From positions 1-54,872 of the forward strand of contig JAYEOM010000027.1 of the NCBI GenBank assembly GCA_034722955.1: a stretch of DNA of 54,872 nucleotides, written 5' to 3'. This DNA is from Campylobacterota bacterium (GTDB lineage Bacteria; Campylobacterota; Campylobacteria; Campylobacterales; Sulfurovaceae). The position numbers were made by a program, and so were the translations under genes. This document shows positions 3,453 to 54,872 of this stretch, in pieces (within the stretch, counting starts at the first letter, position 1; the number at the start of each line of letters is the position of its first letter). The notes under the pieces are model-generated. The model had not been told where the DNA came from and made no database searches. It worked only from the letters and a program-made list of their open reading frames with translations.

Positions 3453-4622
3453 ATGAAGCTTTTGTTTGTTCATGATGAGATTTTTTTGACAAAAAATGGC
3501 AATGTCTACTCCAATAATCTACCATTCCCTATACTAAAACGATATTTAGATCAATTTTCACAAGTGACTGTTTTGGCTAGGAGTTTAGAGGTTGAAGAGA
3601 TTGGGGATAGATCTTTAGCTAGTGGAGATGGGATTGATTTTATTTTTTTAGAGAGTATCTCAACCCTTCGGTCATACTTTGGGCTGAGGCAAAAACACCA
3701 TAAAGTGATCGAGAGTATAGTTGGGAGCCATGATGCGGTGATCGTGAGATTGCCTAGTGAGCTAGGAGCTATGACAGCCAAGATAGCAGAGCAGAGACAT
3801 GTCAAATATCTGGTAGAGGTAGTAGGGTGTGCCTGGAGTGTTATGTGGTATTATGGAGGATACAGATCAAAAATATATGCACCGTTTTTTTATCTTAAGA
3901 TAAAAAACAGAGTTAAAAAATCTAACTATACCAGCTATGTTACTGAGCAATTTTTGCAAAATAGATACCCATCTGCCGATGGTGCAAAAGTTATCTCTCT
4001 ATCTGATGTGATGCTGCCTGATATAGATGAAGATATAGTATCACAGCGTCTATCCAAGATAGAAAAAAAAAGAGAGAAAATACTCTTTGGAACGATAGGT
4101 TCACTAAATGTGAAATATAAAGGAGTAGATAGTACTATAGAGGTACTCTCTAAAATATCACAGAGGTATGAAGATTTCGAATATCATATATTGGGCGAGG
4201 GTGATCCTGCAGAGTATCAGATGATAGCTGAGAGAGTTGGTATCGGTGATAAGATCTTTTTTGATGGTACTTTGCCTAGAGGAGAAGCAGTATATAGGTG
4301 GCTTGATCGTATGGATATCTATCTACAGCCTAGTTTAACAGAGGGTTTGCCCAGATCTGTACTAGAGGCGATGAGTCGCGGGTGTCCTGTAGTTGCTAGT
4401 TCTGTGGGCGGTATGCCTGAACTGTTGGATGAAGATCTCATATTTGATCACAAAAATCAGCAGAGATTTTTTGATCTGATTTGGAAAATGATGAATGATA
4501 AGGAGTTGATGAGAGAGTATGCTATGCAAAATTTTAGTAGATCAAAAGAGTATCAAGAGAAAATATTGAATAAAAAACGAAACAAATTTTGGCTCTATTT
4601 TAAGGAAGATATCAACCTTTAA
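3453..4622 (+). CDS. glycosyltransferase family 4 (GT-B, group 1)
   Basis: TEGLPRSVLEAMSRGCPVVASSVGGMPELL is a GT1/GT4 motif. Confidence 0.85.
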   Translation: MKLLFVHDEIFLTKNGNVYSNNLPFPILKRYLDQFSQVTVLARSLEVEEIGDRSLASGDGIDFIFLESISTLRSYFGLRQKHHKVIESIVGSHDAVIVRLPSELGAMTAKIAEQRHVKYLVEVVGCAWSVMWYYGGYRSKIYAPFFYLKIKNRVKKSNYTSYVTEQFLQNRYPSADGAKVISLSDVMLPDIDEDIVSQRLSKIEKKREKILFGTIGSLNVKYKGVDSTIEVLSKISQRYEDFEYHILGEGDPAEYQMIAERVGIGDKIFFDGTLPRGEAVYRWLDRMDIYLQPSLTEGLPRSVLEAMSRGCPVVASSVGGMPELLDEDLIFDHKNQQRFFDLIWKMMNDKELMREYAMQNFSRSKEYQEKILNKKRNKFWLYFKEDINL

Positions 4623-27299: not shown

Positions 27300-28397
27300 C
27301 TACACTTTCTCATTCATAAGTTTATCTAAAAGCTCTTTGACAGTTATGATTTCATTGAGTCTATATCCATTTGATCCGGTAAAGAAGAGTCCAGATTCAA
27401 CCTTGCCATCATAAGCATCACTCAATCTATCAGCGATACAAAATCCTACCTCCTTGGCTTCTACTCCTCGTTTGCAAGGAGCAACACAGTTGGATACACA
27501 AGATATCTTTGGTGCAGTTTTCTCTTCGATCATAGTCTGAAGATTTGTTTTGACACCTCTTGCAGGGTAACCTACCGGTGACTTGAGAAGTTTGATATCC
27601 TCACTCCTCGCATCCAGAATAACCTGTTTGAAATTATCATGTGCATCACACTCAACAGTACCTATAAATCTAGTACCCATCTGTACTCCAGCAGCACCCA
27701 TCTCTAACATCTTGGAGATATCATTATGATCCCAGATACCACCTGCTGCAATCACAGGAATATCTCCCCAATTTTTCGCCTCTTCTATAACTGGAGGCAG
27801 TATCACTTCAAGTTGATTTTCAGGGAGAAAGCACTCCTCATATTTAAAGCCTTGGTGACCACCGCTGAGCGGACCCTCTACGATGACAGCATCTGGAAGT
27901 CTTCCATGTGTTTTTTTCCAGCGACGACATATGATTCGTAAAGCTTTAGCGGTTGATACTATAGGTATCAGTGCTACATCAGGATAAGCTTTGGTCGCCT
28001 CTGGCATAGTCAGAGGTAGACCGGCACCAGTGATAATCATATCGGCACCCGCTTCACAGGCATCTTTGACGATACGATCATAATCAACAGAGGCATAGAG
28101 TACATTACACGCAAGCGGTTTATCTCCACAAATATCTCTGGCACTCTTAAAAATAGCATGAAGAGCTTTTGCAGAGTAGAAGTTGTCTGCTTCAGAGGGA
28201 CGCATATCTTTGAGAAGTTTATCTGAGTATTCACGGTTATGATAGATACCTGTACCTACAGAACTGACTACTCCTAGTCCCCCCTCTTTGCTTACAGTGC
28301 CTGCAAGCTGATCCCAAGAGATCCCTACACCCATACCACCTTGAATGATAGGCTTCTCTATAGCATATTTTCCTATTTTAAAAGGTTTAAAAGACAT
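27300..28397 (-). CDS. nitronate monooxygenase-family NAD(P)H-dependent flavin oxidoreductase
   Basis: PIIQGGMGVGIS, AAGGIWD and GAAGVQMGTRF are NMO/FabK-like TIM-barrel motifs. Confidence 0.8.
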   Translation of the reverse strand: MSFKPFKIGKYAIEKPIIQGGMGVGISWDQLAGTVSKEGGLGVVSSVGTGIYHNREYSDKLLKDMRPSEADNFYSAKALHAIFKSARDICGDKPLACNVLYASVDYDRIVKDACEAGADMIITGAGLPLTMPEATKAYPDVALIPIVSTAKALRIICRRWKKTHGRLPDAVIVEGPLSGGHQGFKYEECFLPENQLEVILPPVIEEAKNWGDIPVIAAGGIWDHNDISKMLEMGAAGVQMGTRFIGTVECDAHDNFKQVILDARSEDIKLLKSPVGYPARGVKTNLQTMIEEKTAPKISCVSNCVAPCKRGVEAKEVGFCIADRLSDAYDGKVESGLFFTGSNGYRLNEIITVKELLDKLMNEKV

Positions 28398-47768: not shown

Positions 47769-48179
47769 TTGACATACTTCATACTCTTTTCTGTCTCCCT
47801 GCTGGCTGCTACCATTCTTCCCATATCAAGCGAAGCAACCTTACTCTACTATCTCAATGAAGGCAAATCAGCCTGGATACTCTTGATAGTCGCAGGAACA
47901 GGAAATGTATTAGGATCTATCATCAACTATCTGATAGGCAAAAGAGGGGTAGATTATCTGATCGATCACAAGAAGATCACAGCAGATAGGATAGAGAAGA
48001 GCGAACTGTTTTTCAGAAAATATGGTATCTTTGCCCTTCTGCTCTCATGGGTACCTATCATCGGAGATCCTTTGACATTTGTTGCAGGTATGCTACATTA
48101 TGATTTCAAGAAGTTTGTGCTGATTGTTTCGATAGCAAAGTTTGGACGGTATCTTATAGTTATCTCTCTATTTATTTAA
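47769..48179 (+). CDS. YqaA-family (DedA/SNARE-associated superfamily) membrane protein
   Basis: AATILPISSEATLLYYL and GTGNVLGSIINYLIGKRG are typical YqaA motifs. The start is TTG with a weak SD. Confidence 0.65.
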   Translation: MTYFILFSVSLLAATILPISSEATLLYYLNEGKSAWILLIVAGTGNVLGSIINYLIGKRGVDYLIDHKKITADRIEKSELFFRKYGIFALLLSWVPIIGDPLTFVAGMLHYDFKKFVLIVSIAKFGRYLIVISLFI

Positions 48180-49085
48180 CCCTCCCATTTTTTTGAGTAG
48201 TACTCTCTTGATCATCTTTATAAAACCTCTAGGAGATAGTATCTCTATATTTGGCAACCACTTTATGATTAGCTCCTCTAGCTCTCGTAGGTTACTTACG
48301 GTATAGTGTACCTCTATATCTCCATTGTCATAAGTACGGATCACCTCTTGACTAGGTAGATATTTTTTAAAGAGGAAAAAGCGTCTCACTCTCTTGTCTA
48401 CCCTAAGCCTCACTACTATCTCCTCCTTGCCAAAAGCAGCAAATGGAGTCTGAATACGGGTGATAAAACTACTCATATCTCTATATATATAAAATACATT
48501 TTTGGTACTCACAACCTCCTCTATCATCGAGATACGCAGAAACTCAAAGCAATCTTTAGAGATATTCTCACCTACTAGATAGAAGTTTTCATTGAGAAAT
48601 AGTATCTTGTAGGGGTGAAATCTTCGCTGGGTTTTGATGCGTTCAGTCATATATACTATCTTTATCTCTTTTTTGAACCTGATAGAGTGCTCTAGCTTTT
48701 TAAGTACCTCTCTGTTTTGCATATTTTCAAATGGACGGGACTTGAAGTCGTAAACCTCTAGAGATGTTTTGATAAGTCCCTTGGTCTTCTCAGATATCAG
48801 ACTCTGCTTATCTGTCATACCAAAAAGATTGACTATATTTGCCAGAGTCATCAGATCTGTAGCACTCAACACATCCTCTAGCAGTACCCTCCTATACCCC
48901 TGATAACACTCCCCATCTTTAGTCATAAAATCCCCAAACAGCTCACGAATCAGTTCAAAATCCCTACGAATAGTCCTATCACTCACCTCATAAGCAGTAG
49001 CTAAATTGGTCACGCAGAGTTTTTTGCCATCATTGAGGTCTTTTAGTATCTCTATGGTGCGGTATAGGCTGGATTTTTGGCTCAT
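48168..49085 (-). CDS. HTH-WYL-WCX transcriptional regulator
   Basis: N-terminal wHTH (LYRTIEILKDL...VSDRTIRRDFELIRE). Central WYL-like region (HPYKILFLNENFYLVGE). C-terminal extension (ELEELIIKWLPNIEILSP). Confidence 0.8.
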   Translation of the reverse strand: MSQKSSLYRTIEILKDLNDGKKLCVTNLATAYEVSDRTIRRDFELIRELFGDFMTKDGECYQGYRRVLLEDVLSATDLMTLANIVNLFGMTDKQSLISEKTKGLIKTSLEVYDFKSRPFENMQNREVLKKLEHSIRFKKEIKIVYMTERIKTQRRFHPYKILFLNENFYLVGENISKDCFEFLRISMIEEVVSTKNVFYIYRDMSSFITRIQTPFAAFGKEEIVVRLRVDKRVRRFFLFKKYLPSQEVIRTYDNGDIEVHYTVSNLRELEELIIKWLPNIEILSPRGFIKMIKRVLLKKMGGLNK

Positions 49086-49097
49086 AGTTTATCTTTA

Positions 49098-49343
49098 TTA
49101 CAAAAAAGGATTGTGCAATCTATCTATGAAAAAATCAAAATCACTCTCTTCTCTAATCTCTTGTTGCCACTTCTCAGGGTCTTTGATGCGACCATTTAAG
49201 ATATCAAAAGCATAATTTTGACTGTTGGGTGATTTATCCTCCCGAATGACTTCAATTTGATTATTTGGAAAATCTTGAAGTAGTTTTATAATCTTGTTTA
49301 TATATTCATCGTTGGCTTTGATCGTTAGTGTCTCTGTCATCAT
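49098..49343 (-). CDS. hypothetical 81-aa acidic protein
   Basis: A strong AAGGAG 4-7 nt before the tandem ATG ATG. I recognise no family. It lies 12 nt upstream of the WYL gene. Confidence 0.6.
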   Translation of the reverse strand: MMTETLTIKANDEYINKIIKLLQDFPNNQIEVIREDKSPNSQNYAFDILNGRIKDPEKWQQEIREESDFDFFIDRLHNPFL

Positions 49344-49367
49344 ATCACTCCTTCTATCTTTTAAACT

Positions 49368-49376
49368 ATTTTAGCA
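49368..49376 (-). promoter_or_regulatory. extended -10 (TGCTAAAAT) candidate promoter for orf81-WYL
   Basis: The minus strand reads TGCTAAAAT 24 nt upstream of the orf81 ATG, inside the 69-nt prfH-orf81 gap. Confidence 0.35.
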
Positions 49377-49412
49377 TATATTTTATTTTTTATCTATTTT
49401 TCACAAGTACTG

Positions 49413-50003
49413 TCAAGCCTCTTCAAACCCACTCCCCACAAATACCTTCACCGCTTCCCCTCTGCTGACTGTTTTTCCCTCTCTCCAGAGTTTTTGTCTA
49501 TTGTGAGAAATACTCTGTTGTTTCAATAGTTGTACTTTGTGGAGAAGTCTGCTTAGGGCTATTTTTTTGTTTTGGTGTTGGCTTCGCTCTTCGTAGCTGA
49601 TGGCTTCTACTCCCGATGGTGGATAGATGGCTCGTACTCCGCTACAGGTAGTGTTGACATGTTGACCGCCTTTTTTAGGGCTTTTCATCGTTTGGTAGAT
49701 GATCTTTTGTCTATCTATCTGATGAGTATGGGTCTGGCTGTAACAAGATAGAGAGAAGTACCAGTTTTTGCGTTTGTGTTTGGGGCGAAAGGGGCTTTGG
49801 GATCTCCAGAGGAGTGTCCCAGCTAGGGCGAGGATTCTGCTATCATCGCTTTGTAGGAGTATAGAGCGGTAACATCTGGTACAACTACCCTCATCCAGCT
49901 CTATCACTTCAAATGCAAACTCTCCATCTATCCATCGCAGAAAATGCCACAATGCCCTACAGACCTCATCTACTCCATTGCCACTACTGATATGTACCAG
50001 CAT
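49413..50003 (-). CDS. prfH: peptide chain release factor H-like protein
   Basis: GGQ motif (SPKKGGQHVNTTCSGVR). Short (about 196 aa) RF-like protein with no codon-recognition domain. The ATG overlaps the rtcB TGA (TGATG) and sits 5 nt after AAGGAG. Confidence 0.85.
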   Translation of the reverse strand: MLVHISSGNGVDEVCRALWHFLRWIDGEFAFEVIELDEGSCTRCYRSILLQSDDSRILALAGTLLWRSQSPFRPKHKRKNWYFSLSCYSQTHTHQIDRQKIIYQTMKSPKKGGQHVNTTCSGVRAIYPPSGVEAISYEERSQHQNKKIALSRLLHKVQLLKQQSISHNRQKLWREGKTVSRGEAVKVFVGSGFEEA

Positions 50004-51073
50004 CACGACTCCTTGTAGGTGAGAATAGGACGAAACGAGGCGATGACTCTAGCCAAACCAGCCTCTACCAAATCATCTATAACCACATCTATATTTTTAT
50101 AGGCTTGTGGTGCCTCTTCGTATAGGAGTTTGCTATCCGAACAGATGACACGAGAGCCTATAGAGCTGCGTTTTAGATGCTTCTTGGTATATCTGTTGCG
50201 TAGTTTGGCTTCAGCACTGCTCCGCTCCCACTTTCTGCCTGCACCGTGAGCTAGAGAGTAGTTGGAGAGTGATGTGGTATCTGTAGGCATCACTAGATAG
50301 CTGAGGCTTCCACGACTCCCTGCGATGATGACTGCTCCACTATCTGTCGGCGTGGCTCCTTTACGGTGAAGCCAGTTATCATCTTGCTTGATGATAGAGT
50401 TGTGTGCTGTGTCACTGATAGGTTTTGGCATCACATCTAACCGGATAGCTTTTAGTAGCTTGCGGGCTATCTCTGCTCGACTATGTTTGGCATACAGTAT
50501 CGCTTGGTTGTGTTTTTGGAGATACTCCTGTGCCTTTGAACTCTGAGCATCCATCCCCTCGCTTGGCTCATAGCCCCCTGCTACAGAGTCGAAGACCATC
50601 TGCCCAAACGCACGAGAACCACTATGTATCAAAACATACAAAGAGCTATCATTTAACTCCAACTTCTCAAATATCTCCCTATCTATGACCTCATCTACGA
50701 GGTGTAGCTCTGCAAAGTGGTTACCTTTGCCTATACTCCCTAGATGATAACCTAGCCGTGGCATATCAACCTCTATATCATCTAGTGACTCTAGCCGTGA
50801 GAGTTGCTTGACAAACTTATCTACCTTTATCTTGCGAGGCTTTACACTCACCTCAAAGAGACTCATCCCACACCCTATATCTCCACCGATAAGATGTGGA
50901 TATATTCTATCCCTGACCACTATTGCCATCCCATTTGGCACATACCCCACACTCAGATCAGGAAGCCCCACAATATGCTGAACCCCTCTAAAATGTGTTA
51001 TCTTCTCTAGTGTCTCTACACTTCGTGAGTCAATCCAGTTACTCTTTGAAGCGATAATCTTTAACTTGTCCAT
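50003..51073 (-). CDS. rtcB: RtcB-family RNA ligase, release-factor-H-coupled subtype (RtcB2)
   Basis: GGDIGCGM, GKGNHFAELH, HSGSRAFG, AHNSI and HGAGRKW match the RtcB metal and GTP/His-guanylylation motifs. It is shorter than canonical RtcB, as expected for the PrfH-coupled clade. Confidence 0.9.
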   Translation of the reverse strand: MDKLKIIASKSNWIDSRSVETLEKITHFRGVQHIVGLPDLSVGYVPNGMAIVVRDRIYPHLIGGDIGCGMSLFEVSVKPRKIKVDKFVKQLSRLESLDDIEVDMPRLGYHLGSIGKGNHFAELHLVDEVIDREIFEKLELNDSSLYVLIHSGSRAFGQMVFDSVAGGYEPSEGMDAQSSKAQEYLQKHNQAILYAKHSRAEIARKLLKAIRLDVMPKPISDTAHNSIIKQDDNWLHRKGATPTDSGAVIIAGSRGSLSYLVMPTDTTSLSNYSLAHGAGRKWERSSAEAKLRNRYTKKHLKRSSIGSRVICSDSKLLYEEAPQAYKNIDVVIDDLVEAGLARVIASFRPILTYKES

Positions 51074-51146
51074 ATAGTCTCCATGGTTTTGTTTTGTCTA
51101 TTTGTATTCTCTGGTTTAGTTGTTTTTGTTTTTTGATATGTCTCAT
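51039..51146 (-). CDS. candidate 35-codon leader ORF overlapping the rtcB start
   Basis: AAGGAG-ttcca-ATG at 51146. It encodes MRHIKKQKQLNQRIQIDKTKPWRLYGQVKDYRFKE. It ends 35 nt inside rtcB in another frame. Confidence 0.35.
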   Translation of the reverse strand: MRHIKKQKQLNQRIQIDKTKPWRLYGQVKDYRFKE

Positions 51147-51232
51147 TGGAACTCCTTATTTTATATGGAAGATGATACAATATTTTGGTGACATATTTTG
51201 TCCAGTAGAAAATTGTTAAATATTATTGGAAA

Positions 51233-51256
51233 GTTTATCTCCTTGGGGTAGCCTAA
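51233..51256 (-). repeat. 24-nt element, copy C
   Basis: The minus strand reads TTAGGCTACCCCAAGGAGATAAAC, identical to 11619-11642. It lies 85 nt downstream of the aminotransferase stop. Confidence 0.9.
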
Positions 51257-51341
51257 GTTAGATTTGGTATTAGATGGTGTAGATAGTACAAAATACCCTA
51301 TGGACATTTAATCAGATGCATCATATAGCACCCTTTGGCTT

Positions 51342-52457
51342 TTACTCTTGCTCTAAGATACTCCTGCGGATCAATCCACAAACTCTTTTGACATCTTCTC
51401 TGCTCATCTTGGTTCCGCTAGGTAGACATAGACCACGATAGAAAAGATCTCTACTTGTGCCATTGGAAACACTCAGTGAATCTTTAAAAAGAGGTTGCAT
51501 ATGCATAGGCTTCCATAGTGGTCTACTTTCGCAGCCATCTAGCTTGAGTCTATCTATGATATCATCTATGTTTACACCATCTCTAAAGAGCAGTGTCGTT
51601 AGCCATCTGTTGCCATGACTTTTGGCTAGTTCTGGCATCCACTCCACATCAAGATCCTTGAGTTCATCTCTATACCACTCAAATATCTCTCTCTTCTTCT
51701 CTACCCTCTCCTCTATAACTTCCATCTGCCCTACACCTATAGCAGCAAGGAGATTACTCATACGGTAGTTGTACCCATACTCTAGATACTCATAGTGCAG
51801 CATATCCTCTTTGGCCTGTGTACTGTAAAACTTGGCTTTAGCTATCCACTCTGCATTGTCACTCACTAGCATACCACCGCCACTAGTCGTCACTATTTTG
51901 TTGCCATTAAATGAGTAGATGCCAAAATCCCCAAATGTTCCTGTATGCTTGCCACCATATGTAGCACCCAGCGACTCTGCTGCATCTTCTATGAGATAGA
52001 CACCATACTCTCTGCAGATTGATGCTATCTGCTCTATCTCTGCTGATTGTCCATATATATGAGTCAGGATCAAAGCTTTTGGTCTCTTTGTGGCAGTTTT
52101 CAAGTACTCTTTGAGAAGTTTAGGGTCAAGGTTCCAACTCTCTCTTTCGCTATCTATGAAGATTGGATTGGCATGTTGGTATAGGATAGGAGATACAGAA
52201 CCTATGAAAGTAAAAGTAGATGCCAAGACATCATCATCTTTGCCTATCCCCAAAACCCTCAAAGCCAAGTGGATAGCAGCAGTGCCACAAGTCACAGCCA
52301 ATGCATTTTTGGTACCAGTATAGTTGCAGATAGATGCTTCAAATCTATCTACGAACTCACCACCAGGAGCGATATAGTTACTCTCAAATACTTCATCTAT
52401 ATATTTGTGTTCATTGTTACTCATATGTGGAGGAGATAGGAAAAGTTTTTTATGCAT
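51342..52457 (-). CDS. DegT/DnrJ/EryC1/StrS-family sugar aminotransferase (PLP-dependent)
   Basis: LSPPHMS..., DVLASTFTF and the PLP-lysine context SFNGNKIVTTSGGGML. Confidence 0.9.
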   Translation of the reverse strand: MHKKLFLSPPHMSNNEHKYIDEVFESNYIAPGGEFVDRFEASICNYTGTKNALAVTCGTAAIHLALRVLGIGKDDDVLASTFTFIGSVSPILYQHANPIFIDSERESWNLDPKLLKEYLKTATKRPKALILTHIYGQSAEIEQIASICREYGVYLIEDAAESLGATYGGKHTGTFGDFGIYSFNGNKIVTTSGGGMLVSDNAEWIAKAKFYSTQAKEDMLHYEYLEYGYNYRMSNLLAAIGVGQMEVIEERVEKKREIFEWYRDELKDLDVEWMPELAKSHGNRWLTTLLFRDGVNIDDIIDRLKLDGCESRPLWKPMHMQPLFKDSLSVSNGTSRDLFYRGLCLPSGTKMSREDVKRVCGLIRRSILEQE

Positions 52458-52561
52458 TAATTGTTCTCTTTATAGATATGTTATTTGCATTCTAGCAAAG
52501 AATGACTTAGTAGCTGGATATTCCAACAAAACAGACGATTTGTACCACTGCAATAGAGTTG

Positions 52562-53548
52562 TCACTCATCAATATGCAATGCTTTCTTTATATTGATAGC
52601 CCTAGCTATTAGATATAGAAACAATATACTAACTAGAAACAAAACTAACTCTAATGAGGGGTTATTCATAGCTAGCCAAGCAAGGATAAAAAGAGTAGTA
52701 TTGATGATCACAGAGTAGATTACAACTCTGCTATGACTCCATCCACTCTGGGTGAGTTTCTGGTAAGCATGTTTTCTATGTGCCTTTAAGAGATGCTCCC
52801 TATTTCTATATCGCCTGTAGAGCGTAAAGGTAGCATCAAACCAAAATAGAGCAAATAGTATTAACCAGATGATGATTGAGGTGCCATGATTTTGGTAATA
52901 TATGGCAAAGATGGCGATATTGTATCCTAGAAGTGTACTCCCTGCATCCCCCATAAAGATCTTCGCCTTATGCCAGTTCCAAACCAAAAATCCCAAGACG
53001 GAAGCGACGAATACCAAAAAGTGGACTTCACCGAAGAGTAGATAGCCAGCGATGCCCAAGAAGACGGCTTCACTTCCTGCATATCCGTCTATGCCGTCGA
53101 GAAAATTATAGAGGTTGATGAACCAGATGATGGCGATGACGGCTATGGTGTTGGTGATGATCTGATTTTCTATCGTGAAGAGTCCAAAGTCGAGTACGTT
53201 CAAGCCGCCTAAAAACCAGAGCCCCGCCAGCGCTGAAAAAAGCTGCGCCGCAATCCTCACCTTCGGTCTCAGTTCATACAGATCATCCAGATAACTGACC
53301 AGTGCGATCACCGCTCCGGCCATCAAGGCATAAAATAGGTCTGATGAGATCTGATCAACAGCGAACAGATAGCCAATGCCGGCAAACCAAGTCACAGCGA
53401 TGGCCGTACCCCCGCCATGAGGCGTAGGTGCCGCATGCGAACTCCTGTCATTGGGGATATCCATCAGCGACTTTTTGATGGCATAGTTTTTTACCAAGTA
53501 TGTTAACCCGAATGACAATATAAACAATACTATATAAACATTCAACAT
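52562..53548 (-). CDS. MraY/WecA/WbpL-family (GT4) undecaprenyl-phosphate sugar-phosphate transferase, second copy
   Basis: IPNDRSSH, YLDD, NFLDGIDGYA and IFMGDAGS. Confidence 0.85.
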   Translation of the reverse strand: MLNVYIVLFILSFGLTYLVKNYAIKKSLMDIPNDRSSHAAPTPHGGGTAIAVTWFAGIGYLFAVDQISSDLFYALMAGAVIALVSYLDDLYELRPKVRIAAQLFSALAGLWFLGGLNVLDFGLFTIENQIITNTIAVIAIIWFINLYNFLDGIDGYAGSEAVFLGIAGYLLFGEVHFLVFVASVLGFLVWNWHKAKIFMGDAGSTLLGYNIAIFAIYYQNHGTSIIIWLILFALFWFDATFTLYRRYRNREHLLKAHRKHAYQKLTQSGWSHSRVVIYSVIINTTLFILAWLAMNNPSLELVLFLVSILFLYLIARAINIKKALHIDE

Positions 53549-54403
53549 TTAAAATTTACCATTTAACATTAGCTTGATCCCCTCTTGCGTACTTACCCTG
53601 TTCTCAAAGCCAAGCATCTTTTTTGTCCAGCTGTTATCTACTTCCAGACTCTCATAAAGCCGCTTGTAAAATGATGGCTTGACTGATTTCAACAGCTGCG
53701 GAAAGAGCGGAAGAGCGAGCAGCGTTACTCTCCTGCCTCTCACCTTGGCGATGATCTTTATCAGCTCCGTTGTAGAGACCGGCTGATCATCACCGGCCAG
53801 AAAAGTGCCTCCTGTTTTACTTTCACATAGCCTCTCGATCATATCGCAGAGATTGCCGATGTAGACCATGCTTCGCCTATTGTCGATGCCGCCGAAAGGC
53901 AGGACGGGCACTTTATCTACCAGTTTTACCAGGTTGAGGATGTTTGCCTTCACCCCTTTGCCGTAGACGATAGGGGTACGGAGTATAGAAACGATAAAGT
54001 CATCATCTTCCATCTCCCTGAGCCGGTTTTCGGCTTCGAGTTTACTAATGCCGTAATCATCCAGGGGCTTGCATTTCGTTGTTTCCGTATATGACCCATC
54101 AGTCTCTTCACCATAGACTTTGACACTGCTCATAAAGATAAGCTGCTTCACGCCGCTCTGCTTCGCTTTCTGCGCTAATGCCAGCGTATTGTCCACATTG
54201 ACCCTCTGGTACTCCTCTTTTGCCGCTCCGCCCATTTGGTGTACCAGCGCCGAAAGATGCACGACGGTATCGATCTGTGTAAGATCCAGGCTATCCAGTT
54301 CATCCTTTAAAAAAGAGAAAGTCTCTATATTATACCTGTCGCTGTAGTTGCTTTGAAAATAGCTGCCTATGAAGCCGGAGCTTCCTGTGAGTAGAAGTTT
54401 CAT
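53549..54403 (-). CDS. NAD-dependent epimerase/dehydratase (SDR family)
   Basis: TGSSGFIGS Rossmann motif and the YGISK catalytic YxxxK. Its stop abuts the downstream ATG. Confidence 0.85.
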   Translation of the reverse strand: MKLLLTGSSGFIGSYFQSNYSDRYNIETFSFLKDELDSLDLTQIDTVVHLSALVHQMGGAAKEEYQRVNVDNTLALAQKAKQSGVKQLIFMSSVKVYGEETDGSYTETTKCKPLDDYGISKLEAENRLREMEDDDFIVSILRTPIVYGKGVKANILNLVKLVDKVPVLPFGGIDNRRSMVYIGNLCDMIERLCESKTGGTFLAGDDQPVSTTELIKIIAKVRGRRVTLLALPLFPQLLKSVKPSFYKRLYESLEVDNSWTKKMLGFENRVSTQEGIKLMLNGKF

Positions 54404-54872
54404 TTTTTAAAAAGCTCCAATATTTTTTTCGGGTACTTGGAGTAGATCTTCGCCAGACTCGTCCTGATCCCATTTTCATGGCAGGCGCGCAAGATCTCTT
54501 TATTTAAGATCCAGTTGCTTTTCAAATTGCTTGTGCTCACTCCCCCCATTCTCATCACCGTTAAAACAGCATCGATATAGCTGTATGAGAGGCTGTTTTT
54601 ATGCAGGAATCTTATAAGCAGCTCATAATCCGCTGCAATTATATAGTCGGTCTTATAGAGGCCGAATCTGTCATAGAACTCTTTTTTTACGAAAAATGTC
54701 GGATGTGCCGGCATCCAGCCATAAGCAAATTTTGACGGTTTGAATTTTTTGGAAGAGTATCGTCTGACATACTTATTAAGATTATCAGGTTTCACATAGA
54801 CCAAATCGGCGAAAACAGAATCTACCTTCTTTTCTTCAAACTCTTTTACAACTCTAGAGATCACCTCATCAT
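54400..54872 (-). CDS. glycosyltransferase family 2, C-terminal part (the N-terminus lies beyond the window end)
   Basis: The frame is open to the window edge. WMPAHPTFFVKKEFY...AADYELLIRFL is typical of the GT2 C-terminal half. There is a 4-nt overlap with the epimerase start. Confidence 0.65.
   Translation of the reverse strand, partial: DEVISRVVKEFEEKKVDSVFADLVYVKPDNLNKYVRRYSSKKFKPSKFAYGWMPAHPTFFVKKEFYDRFGLYKTDYIIAADYELLIRFLHKNSLSYSYIDAVLTVMRMGGVSTSNLKSNWILNKEILRACHENGIRTSLAKIYSKYPKKILELFKK

Follow-up and report, generated by a model that had tools for sequence, protein, structure and literature searches.

The rtcB2-prfH gene pair, which encodes an RNA ligase and a short release factor, is in our assessment probably a ribosome rescue-and-repair operon under a dedicated regulator of the WYL family. 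We analysed it in contig JAYEOM010000027.1 (positions 1-54,872) of assembly GCA_034722955.1, from a Campylobacterota bacterium of the Sulfurovaceae; this whole stretch of 54,872 nucleotides (nt) is called the window, and coordinates given without a locus name refer to it. Four genes follow one another on its minus strand: rtcB2 (50003-51073, 356 amino acids, aa), coding for a ligase of the PrfH-coupled subfamily; prfH (49413-50006, 197 aa from a GTG start, with an alternative ATG one codon later), coding for a short GGQ release-factor homologue; orf81 (49098-49343, 81 aa); and the gene of an HTH-WYL-WCX transcription factor (48168-49085, 305 aa), the predicted regulator of rtcB2-prfH, referred to below as WYL. 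The region is likely to consist of one functional unit, the WYL-controlled rtcB2-prfH pair, and one relic, orf81.

A sequence-only reading of this stretch had described the four co-directional open reading frames (ORFs), their overlap, both gaps and a set of protein motifs, all of which we confirmed. The stop codon of rtcB2 and the start of prfH overlap within GTGATG at 50003-50006, prfH and orf81 are 69 nt apart (49344-49412), and orf81 and WYL 12 nt (49086-49097). The 69-nt gap holds TGCTAAAAT (49376-49368) and an AAGGAG preceding the ATG of orf81. What did not hold was the proposal that the four genes form one module: the roughly 50 related WYL or RtcB2 loci do not show this co-directional order in a single case, their usual layout being divergent.

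Results

The WYL gene proved to be evolutionarily tied to RtcB ligase genes. A scan with a WYL alignment, using one genome per species, returned 76 loci, 43 of them with orthologues at 50-90% identity, and RtcB2, PrfH and other proteins were mapped onto these WYL loci. The linkage count is based on the 29 distinct orthologue loci whose upstream DNA extends for 2.5 kb or more. In 24 of them an RtcB gene points away from WYL on the opposite strand: 15 of these contain rtcB2-prfH (in some cases together with a second, 448-aa RtcB), and the other nine have the 448-aa RtcB alone. The ligase gene is directly adjacent to WYL in 11 loci, across an intergenic region of 81-212 bp; in the remaining ones, variable cargo genes lie between the control region and WYL, directed as WYL is and usually with overlapping stop and start codons. 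Identity to the window proteins was about 70% for RtcB2 and about 71% for WYL, and lower, at 54-60%, for PrfH; the similar values of RtcB2 and WYL are compatible with co-inheritance. Since four proteobacterial rtcB2-prfH loci (Ralstonia, E. coli, Methylosinus and Shinella) have no annotated WYL neighbour, the link between WYL and RtcB appears to be specific to Campylobacterota and one metagenome-assembled genome (MAG) of the Cardiobacteriales.

A shared sequence element accompanies these genes. The box TGnTAYAAT lies 6-8 nt ahead of a palindrome, (G/T)GAC-N7-GTCC, in most of the relatives' divergent intergenic regions, and in 11 of the 11 directly divergent ones it is oriented toward WYL in exactly this order; the palindrome turned up at the corresponding place in over 20 other loci. 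The window carries the same block at the same position, with the imperfect 15-bp palindrome TGACATATTTTGTCC (51189-51203, unstranded) as the predicted WYL operator. When written as the pattern GWCRNATWNTGTCC, it was matched 52 times in 1.03 Mb of WYL-derived loci, against about one match expected by our own estimate from information content. All matches but one fall in loci of close WYL relatives, most of them in loci outside the pattern's derivation. Exactly one match occurs in the window, upstream of rtcB2, and when two mismatches were allowed the only other one was a degenerate match at 28392, at chance level. Control of the repair pair by WYL, as proposed from the sequence alone, is therefore supported both by the RtcB linkage and by the shared predicted operator upstream of the window's rtcB2; comparison of the loci showed that the WYL regulator, the palindrome and the predicted RtcB promoters travel together. 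We found no description of this operator in the searchable literature.

On the rtcB2 strand the control region reads TGGACA within the operator, a 16-nt spacer, TATTGT, AAGGAG and a leader ORF of 35 codons whose end lies within rtcB2. The two hexamers, the first of them -35-like and the second -10-like, make up a candidate rtcB2 promoter (51177-51204, minus strand; 9 of 12 matches in a promoter scan), which is a consensus match only; reading the relatives' control regions by eye, we found the same hexamers, spacing and order of elements. On the opposite strand lies the extended -10 TGATACAAT (51173-51181, plus strand), whose counterpart is predicted to drive the WYL-side operon in relatives and which is orphaned in the window, where no WYL gene follows it. 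A transcript from this box would run antisense into a DegT-like aminotransferase gene (51342-52457, minus strand), and there is a terminator-like hairpin at 51242-51257 on the plus strand. By blastn, the similarity between the window and its relatives ends near 51214, about 11 nt past the operator.

The predicted operator occurs ahead of several types of genes, which suggests a regulon with multiple promoters. Three classes of position were recognised: between rtcB2 and the WYL-side operon; directly upstream of the 448-aa RtcB and, in locus L023, of a CCA-adding enzyme with PolyA_pol and HD domains; and upstream of a 370-384-aa SPFH/Band 7 protein that sits downstream of WYL. The 448-aa RtcB is often accompanied by a protein of 243-249 aa. 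Copies of the operator before genes other than rtcB2 were seen in relatives at L002/L009 649-2798, L016 4739-6134, L023 2652-4211, L027 1341-2908 and L030 13695-15185. The window itself contains no 448-aa RtcB, 243-aa protein, SPFH protein, CCA-adding enzyme, low-molecular-weight (LMW) phosphatase-like gene or Fic gene.

The variable cargo slot just upstream of or after WYL (L003 4609-6004; L001 1153-2305; L030 10921-13585) was occupied by proteins of 176, 107, 182 and 76 aa and by Fic; the 107-aa protein is LMW-phosphatase-like (CSRNQWRS; Pfam LMWPc 29.5 bits), and the 182-aa one has a GRIGRVYFSK motif. Among the proteins of this slot, only the LMW-phosphatase-like one and Fic could be assigned to a family. 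In L023 (5282-6193) the WYL orthologue near the CCA-adding enzyme is interrupted, apparently through a frameshift or a stop codon, which leaves two ORFs of 64 and 237 aa; it adjoins an IS200-like transposase gene.

The regulator itself is a member of the known HTH-WYL-WCX class. Its HTH_DeoR, WYL and WCX domains scored 27.6, 32.1 and 31.9 bits, all over the cut-off, and the PADLOC WYL model 65 bits. Homologues at E <= 1e-10 numbered 358, the best 120 of which are 66-90% identical; those listed with a source name belong to Sulfurovum, Halarcobacter and other Campylobacterota. An alignment of 29 homologues contained 90 invariant columns, including the recognition-helix stretch VSDRTIRRDF. An AlphaFold2 model (predicted local distance difference test, pLDDT, 76) found DriD as its best Foldseek match (E = 8e-15), followed by PafBC, CapW, BrxR and the Cas13-associated WYL1, with E values running from 8e-15 to 1e-7 over the class from DriD to BrxR; among the DriD and CapW structures that it matched, several contain bound single-stranded DNA (ssDNA). 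With DriD, PafBC, CapW and BrxR the window protein thus shares its domain architecture and, according to the model, its fold; a palindromic site near its own gene and its target promoters, which would be a further likeness, is here predicted from sequence. It differs from them in its predicted targets, which are RNA repair genes and not DNA-damage genes, CBASS or BREX, and in that a sequence search gave no match to any solved WYL member. A distant homologue (22% identity) in a Trueperaceae MAG, L080, has a similar palindrome, TGGACAGATTTTGTCCA, at 4307-4320, 17 nt before the start codon.

The tandem order seen in the window is unique among all the loci examined, and in its sub-lineage the regulator evidently works in trans, because relatives keep the control block without an adjacent WYL and the two may lie on different contigs. 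The closest rtcB2-prfH relatives (L136-L138, RtcB2 76-79% identical) retain operator, promoter, ribosome-binding site and leader ORF and have no WYL beside them. For MAG GCA_029935855.1, the WYL gene, at 90% identity the most similar one found, ends a Fic/phosphatase-like operon on one contig (L001), and rtcB2-prfH is located on another (L138). A duplicated WYL N-terminus (residues 1-34, 85% identical) was observed after the 176-aa gene and upstream of the full WYL in L131 (2329-2430) and L132 (2223-2324), which points to recombination at the 5' junction of WYL; judging from these comparisons, the tandem order of the window is one more product of frequent recombination at this junction. A single inversion of the rtcB2-prfH-operator segment would yield the window order, a path that we do not claim because the closest relatives already have WYL and rtcB2 unlinked. 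The genes flanking the window's locus (DegT-like, DedA-like and others) were found in no related locus, which left no basis for reconstructing the ancestral neighbourhood.

Upstream of the control region lies a minus-strand glycan-synthesis cluster (51342-54864), whose genes, labelled from their translations, encode a DegT-type aminotransferase, a WecA-like glycosyl-1-phosphate transferase, a NAD-dependent epimerase and a glycosyltransferase fragment; the genes of this cluster flank no WYL or RtcB locus of the relatives.

These observations bear on the idea that WYL controls something else and came to lie beside prfH by an accident of rearrangement. The unique gene order of the window would agree with it, as would the neighbours of the closest WYL relatives (75-90% identical), which adjoin Fic, the LMW-phosphatase-like gene, YkuD and Sel1, and the fact that WYL regulators elsewhere gate defence systems, in keeping with the PADLOC match. 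We nevertheless regard chance adjacency as quite improbable, given the divergent RtcB in 24 of 29 orthologue loci, the invariance of the recognition helix across orthologues and the shared operator, which precedes rtcB2 in the window and also in those relatives whose WYL is unlinked.

The RtcB2-PrfH pair is itself a member of a known family, as the sequence-only reading had stated. RtcB2 scored 202 bits with PF01139, 428.4 bits with NF007153 (cut-off 407) and 375.9 bits with TIGR03073 (cut-off 271.8). It contains GNHF, HSGSR, AHNS and HGAGR, and its DIxCG cysteine, GNHF, HxGSR and HGAGR align with those of P. horikoshii RtcB (4dwr, 1uc2). These motifs serve metal binding and guanylylation, the histidine of HGAGR being the residue of RtcB that carries GMP. 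The RF-1 domain of PrfH scored 61 bits and includes the GGQ; TIGR03072 was by far its best family, with RF2 as runner-up at 65 bits. Its closest solved relatives are CgPrfH (9mor, 94.2 bits) and EcPrfH (7sa4, 92.5 bits, residues 1-196), against about 40 bits for each of the RF1 and RF2 structures, and GGQHVN aligns with the PrfH relatives. The RtcB ligands within these four aligned motifs and the GGQ of PrfH, for which the earlier reading had allowed that alignment might reveal disruption, are intact in the alignments to solved relatives. Like other members of its family, PrfH is about 200 aa long and lacks RF domain 1. It ends at residue 197, level with the end of the 204-aa EcPrfH, and does not have the basic C-terminal helix or tail of the PrfH-CT subfamily, whose members measure 225-250 aa (PMC12829566); it is thus of the short, E. 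coli type. The position of rtcB2 directly upstream of a co-oriented prfH with overlapping stop and start codons is a described arrangement (PMC1586002), and prfH is presumably coupled translationally to rtcB2.

The leader ORF MRHIKKQKQLNQRIQIDKTKPWRLYGQVKDYRFKE (51039-51146, minus strand) has 35 codons, is rich in K, Q and N, follows a strong ribosome-binding site (AAGGAG, 6 nt upstream) and ends 35 nt inside rtcB2 in another frame. ORFs of the same kind, with 25-44 codons rich in K, N, Q and R, which likewise follow a ribosome-binding site and reach into the start of rtcB2, were found in at least 14 of the 17 Campylobacterota rtcB2 loci scanned, and also precede rtcB2 in L136-L138; the four proteobacterial rtcB2 loci inspected have none. 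Such an ORF could provide translational coupling or act as a sensor of the state of the ribosome. An RNA attenuator in the rtcB2 leader was rejected as a candidate, the predicted folding being no better than that of shuffled sequences (z = 0.84).

Between prfH and WYL, orf81 turned out to have a different origin. Family scans gave no family above threshold for it, its antitoxin family matches no Pfam or NCBIfam model, and a match to Pfam DUF3627 was discarded (18.5 bits, threshold 20.9). A word-indexed search of 5.8 billion proteins returned only orf81 itself; an exhaustive phmmer search, run against 1.8 billion representatives, brought up 11 relatives, which are 66-85 aa long and 36-49% identical, and the family has the conserved C-terminal motif AFGILKGRIKDPxxWQxxIREExDRDIY. 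A metagenome scan based on a 5-sequence alignment returned 45 loci of the family, and in 21 of them, which are most of those whose contig extends far enough, a gene of 110-135 aa follows at most 25 nt downstream, mostly with a 4-nt overlap. Family models placed the tested partner among the PIN-domain proteins (PF01850, 45.5 bits) and gave it a weak VapC match in NCBIfam; orf81 is 38-49% identical to the VapB-type genes that precede PIN genes with a 4-nt overlap. Because its genes regularly pair with a PIN partner gene, the orf81 family is, by this genomic association, a VapB-type antitoxin family. A scan of viral contigs for the family found none.

The end of orf81 derives, by alignment, from the toxin. 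Its last 13 residues, FDFFIDRLHNPFL, are identical at 9 of 13 positions to the VapC C-terminus of locus L083, FSFFTDRLLNPFE, with the ends aligned, a match that none of 20,000 shuffles reached, and the stop codon lies one residue past a shared NPF in both the orf81 tail and the partner toxin. At the DNA level, window positions 49211-49141 are 83% identical to L083 560-630; the alignment then skips 351 nt of the L083 vapBC and resumes over the last 41 nt of vapC. We thus read orf81 as an in-frame vapB-'vapC deletion fusion from which about 350 nt were lost: the vapB-derived part (49141-49343, minus strand, residues 1 to about 68) aligns with VapB and ends at IREESD, and the vapC-derived tail (49098-49140, minus strand) comprises the 13 residues given above and the stop codon. 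As in VapBC systems, where, in the loci of the orf81 family, a gene of about 75 aa overlaps a PIN gene of about 121 aa by 4 nt, orf81 has its own promoter-like box and ribosome-binding site; it differs from them in keeping only the last 13 toxin codons, fused to the antitoxin. No intact PIN toxin follows orf81, and no VapC is encoded elsewhere in the window. An AlphaFold2 model of orf81 (pLDDT 70.7, predicted template modelling score, pTM, 0.31) was too weak for a structure search.

In the Shinella plasmid NZ_CP015738.1 (L130, 1120-5489) a convergent gene pair annotated as vapBC comes after the genes for a long RtcB, RtcB2 and PrfH, in this order. This is the second example of an RtcB2-PrfH operon with a PIN toxin-antitoxin cassette next to it, and it may be coincidence.

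The sequence-only reading had proposed that the four genes form a self-sensing module, in which orf81 is a dedicated adaptor, immunity factor or anti-regulator and the 69-nt gap a control site for WYL. The co-directional and tightly spaced genes speak for it, as do the good ribosome-binding site and promoter-like box of orf81. Against it, a profile of the orf81 family matched none of the 81 WYL-derived loci, so that orf81 stands beside WYL or RtcB in no relative, and the search of 5.8 billion proteins produced no close relative; those relatives that exist are VapB antitoxins with PIN toxins in unrelated contexts, the tail is a toxin C-terminus and the gene order recurs in no other locus. The gap, moreover, has no copy of the operator. 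Its extended -10 (49368-49376, minus strand, from the promoter scan) and AAGGAG fit instead the promoter and ribosome-binding site of a vapB cassette: vapB genes of the same family elsewhere mostly have TGnTATAAT-like boxes 20-35 nt ahead of an AAGGAG-type site. A dedicated four-gene module is accordingly very improbable indeed, and orf81 would have no conserved part in the repair system; at most it would be an orphaned antitoxin that lends WYL some promoter activity, and its protein may still be made. For annotation the lesson is that a neat co-directional "operon" with an acidic orphan inside can be the product of rearrangement and contain a decayed toxin-antitoxin cassette.

Discussion

Published work on E. 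coli and Capnocytophaga showed that PrfH frees the nascent chain from ribosomes whose 16S rRNA has been cut in the decoding centre and that RtcB2 reseals the cut 16S rRNA. The window pair resembles that of E. coli (PMC9304027, PMC9223846, PMC13166195) in having an RtcB2-type ligase gene followed by an overlapping gene for a short GGQ factor, and the solved proteins closest to its PrfH are EcPrfH and CgPrfH. It differs from it in that the window PrfH is about 35% identical to proteobacterial PrfH and falls just under the TIGR03072 cut-off, and in that the operon has a leader ORF led by a ribosome-binding site and a WYL operator, neither of which was present in the four proteobacterial loci inspected. 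The action proposed here, release of the nascent chain from cut ribosomes by PrfH and resealing of the rRNA by RtcB2, would be carried over by analogy from the published systems.

In the mechanism that we propose, a dimer of the WYL protein would bind the palindrome with its winged-helix domains, and the rtcB2 promoter would be switched when the WYL domain takes a single-stranded nucleic-acid signal. WYL would control rtcB2-prfH; where the usual divergent layout puts the start region of the WYL-side promoter under the palindrome, it would control its own operon as well. As the WYL gene of the window lies downstream of prfH in the same direction and without a ribosome-binding site of its own, it would be expressed there by read-through from the rtcB2 and vapB promoters, which would preserve autoregulation.

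The trigger is probably a single-stranded nucleic-acid fragment, because the model of the regulator matches the ssDNA complexes of DriD and CapW, and PafBC and WYL1. PafBC responds to ssDNA, and WYL1 binds single-stranded RNA. A product of RNA damage is attractive as the signal, because the predicted targets are RNA-end-joining and tRNA-end-repair enzymes.

As to the sign of control, we somewhat favour repression relieved by the ligand over activation, because the operator covers the -35 of three types of target promoters, by our own count at two spacings, and because two promoter classes have good -10 boxes. In the opposite scheme the same regulon would be served by an activator of the DriD/PafBC type that replaces the -35 contact and is switched on by the ssDNA of damage or phage, and the RNA ligases would belong to a general damage or defence response and not to a loop that senses RNA breaks. 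The best structural matches, DriD and PafBC, are indeed activators, and DriD and CapW were solved with ssDNA; the centre of the operator falls, by our count, at about -26 to -31 in the target promoters, which is roughly the position of PafBC-type sites; the -10 element of rtcB2 is weak; and Fic, SPFH and phosphatase-like cargo of the regulon resemble genes of conflict systems. Conversely, the spacing from operator to -10 varies by about 5 bp between promoter classes (own count), which strict class-II-type activation would tolerate poorly, the promoters of the 448-aa RtcB and SPFH genes have good -10 boxes (TATAAT and TATACT), as expected if they are repressed, the WYL-side promoter, too, has its start region under the operator, and the regulon centres on enzymes that heal RNA ends, namely two RtcB types and the CCA-adding enzyme. 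On balance, we regard this activator scheme as less likely than not.

Several points weigh against a dedicated WYL repressor of the repair operon that senses damaged RNA. Simple repression is argued against by the weak rtcB2 -10 element (TATTGT) and by the activator nature of DriD, the best structural match, and PafBC, both of which bind near -35. In every solved WYL regulator with a known ligand that ligand is, to our knowledge, single-stranded DNA, and the signal may accordingly come from DNA damage or phage infection and not from RNA damage. Expression of WYL in this contig is uncertain, since no ribosome-binding site lies directly ahead of its gene (AAAGATAAACTATG). Some of the loci in which the operator pattern was later counted had also served for drawing it up by eye, and operator binding, promoters and transcription units are all deduced from sequence conservation only. 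Regarding linkage, five WYL homologues (L023, L036-L038 and L046) have no RtcB nearby. Four of them form a subgroup of 56-65% identity whose recognition helix is a different one, VAPRTIQRDI; two members of this subgroup are second copies in genomes that also hold an RtcB-linked copy, and L023 has the CCA-adding enzyme in place of RtcB. The next WYL relatives of the window (75-80% identical) stand in unrelated contexts with no operator beside them, so that linkage is loose in this sub-lineage. Finally, with 158.1 bits PrfH remains slightly below the equivalog cut-off of TIGR03072 (166.65).

The circuit invites comparison with RtcR-rtcBA, which is controlled by a CARF-sigma54 activator (PMC7790460): in both, an RNA ligase operon stands under a dedicated one-component regulator with a nucleic-acid-sensing domain, usually encoded divergently. 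The regulator described here has, by contrast, the HTH-WYL-WCX and not the CARF-AAA+-HTH architecture, and the predicted promoter is sigma70-like with the operator over its -35 instead of an enhancer-dependent sigma54 promoter. Among the genes inspected beside the ligases there was no rtcA homologue, in an inspection that included no search aimed at rtcA; likewise, none of the four genes of the window and their immediate neighbours resembles RtcR or RtcA, the part of the window to which this observation applies. A wider picture, which we put forward tentatively as one possibility, is that in Campylobacterota a WYL factor replaces RtcR as the sensor of broken RNA. A single palindrome would then control a dispersed RNA-repair regulon that includes rtcB2-prfH for ribosomes, the long RtcB with its 243-aa partner and, in some species, the CCA-adding enzyme, the SPFH protein and the small LMW-phosphatase-like enzyme, and the leader ORF would add a second, translational layer reporting on ribosome health.

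No system other than RtcB2-PrfH is known to us to combine the rescue of ribosomes cut in the decoding centre with their repair. In the searchable literature we found no account of its regulation in any organism and no WYL regulator, operator or leader ORF described for rtcB2-prfH; a review from the Aravind laboratory proposes, in general terms only, that WYL factors may sense cyclic-phosphate RNAs and regulate RNA repair (PMC9503650).

In summary, the four-gene module dissolves under comparison, and what appears to emerge is a conserved and testable regulatory circuit for ribosome repair. The analysis provides a handle on the control of ribosome repair that can be put to the test: a dedicated regulator, a 15-bp operator, a promoter layout found across dozens of species and a leader ORF. 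If the WYL domain binds cleaved RNA, RNA repair would have a regulatory input that does not depend on the CARF-based RtcR, and the role of WYL regulators would extend from the control of DNA damage and phage defence to RNA repair.

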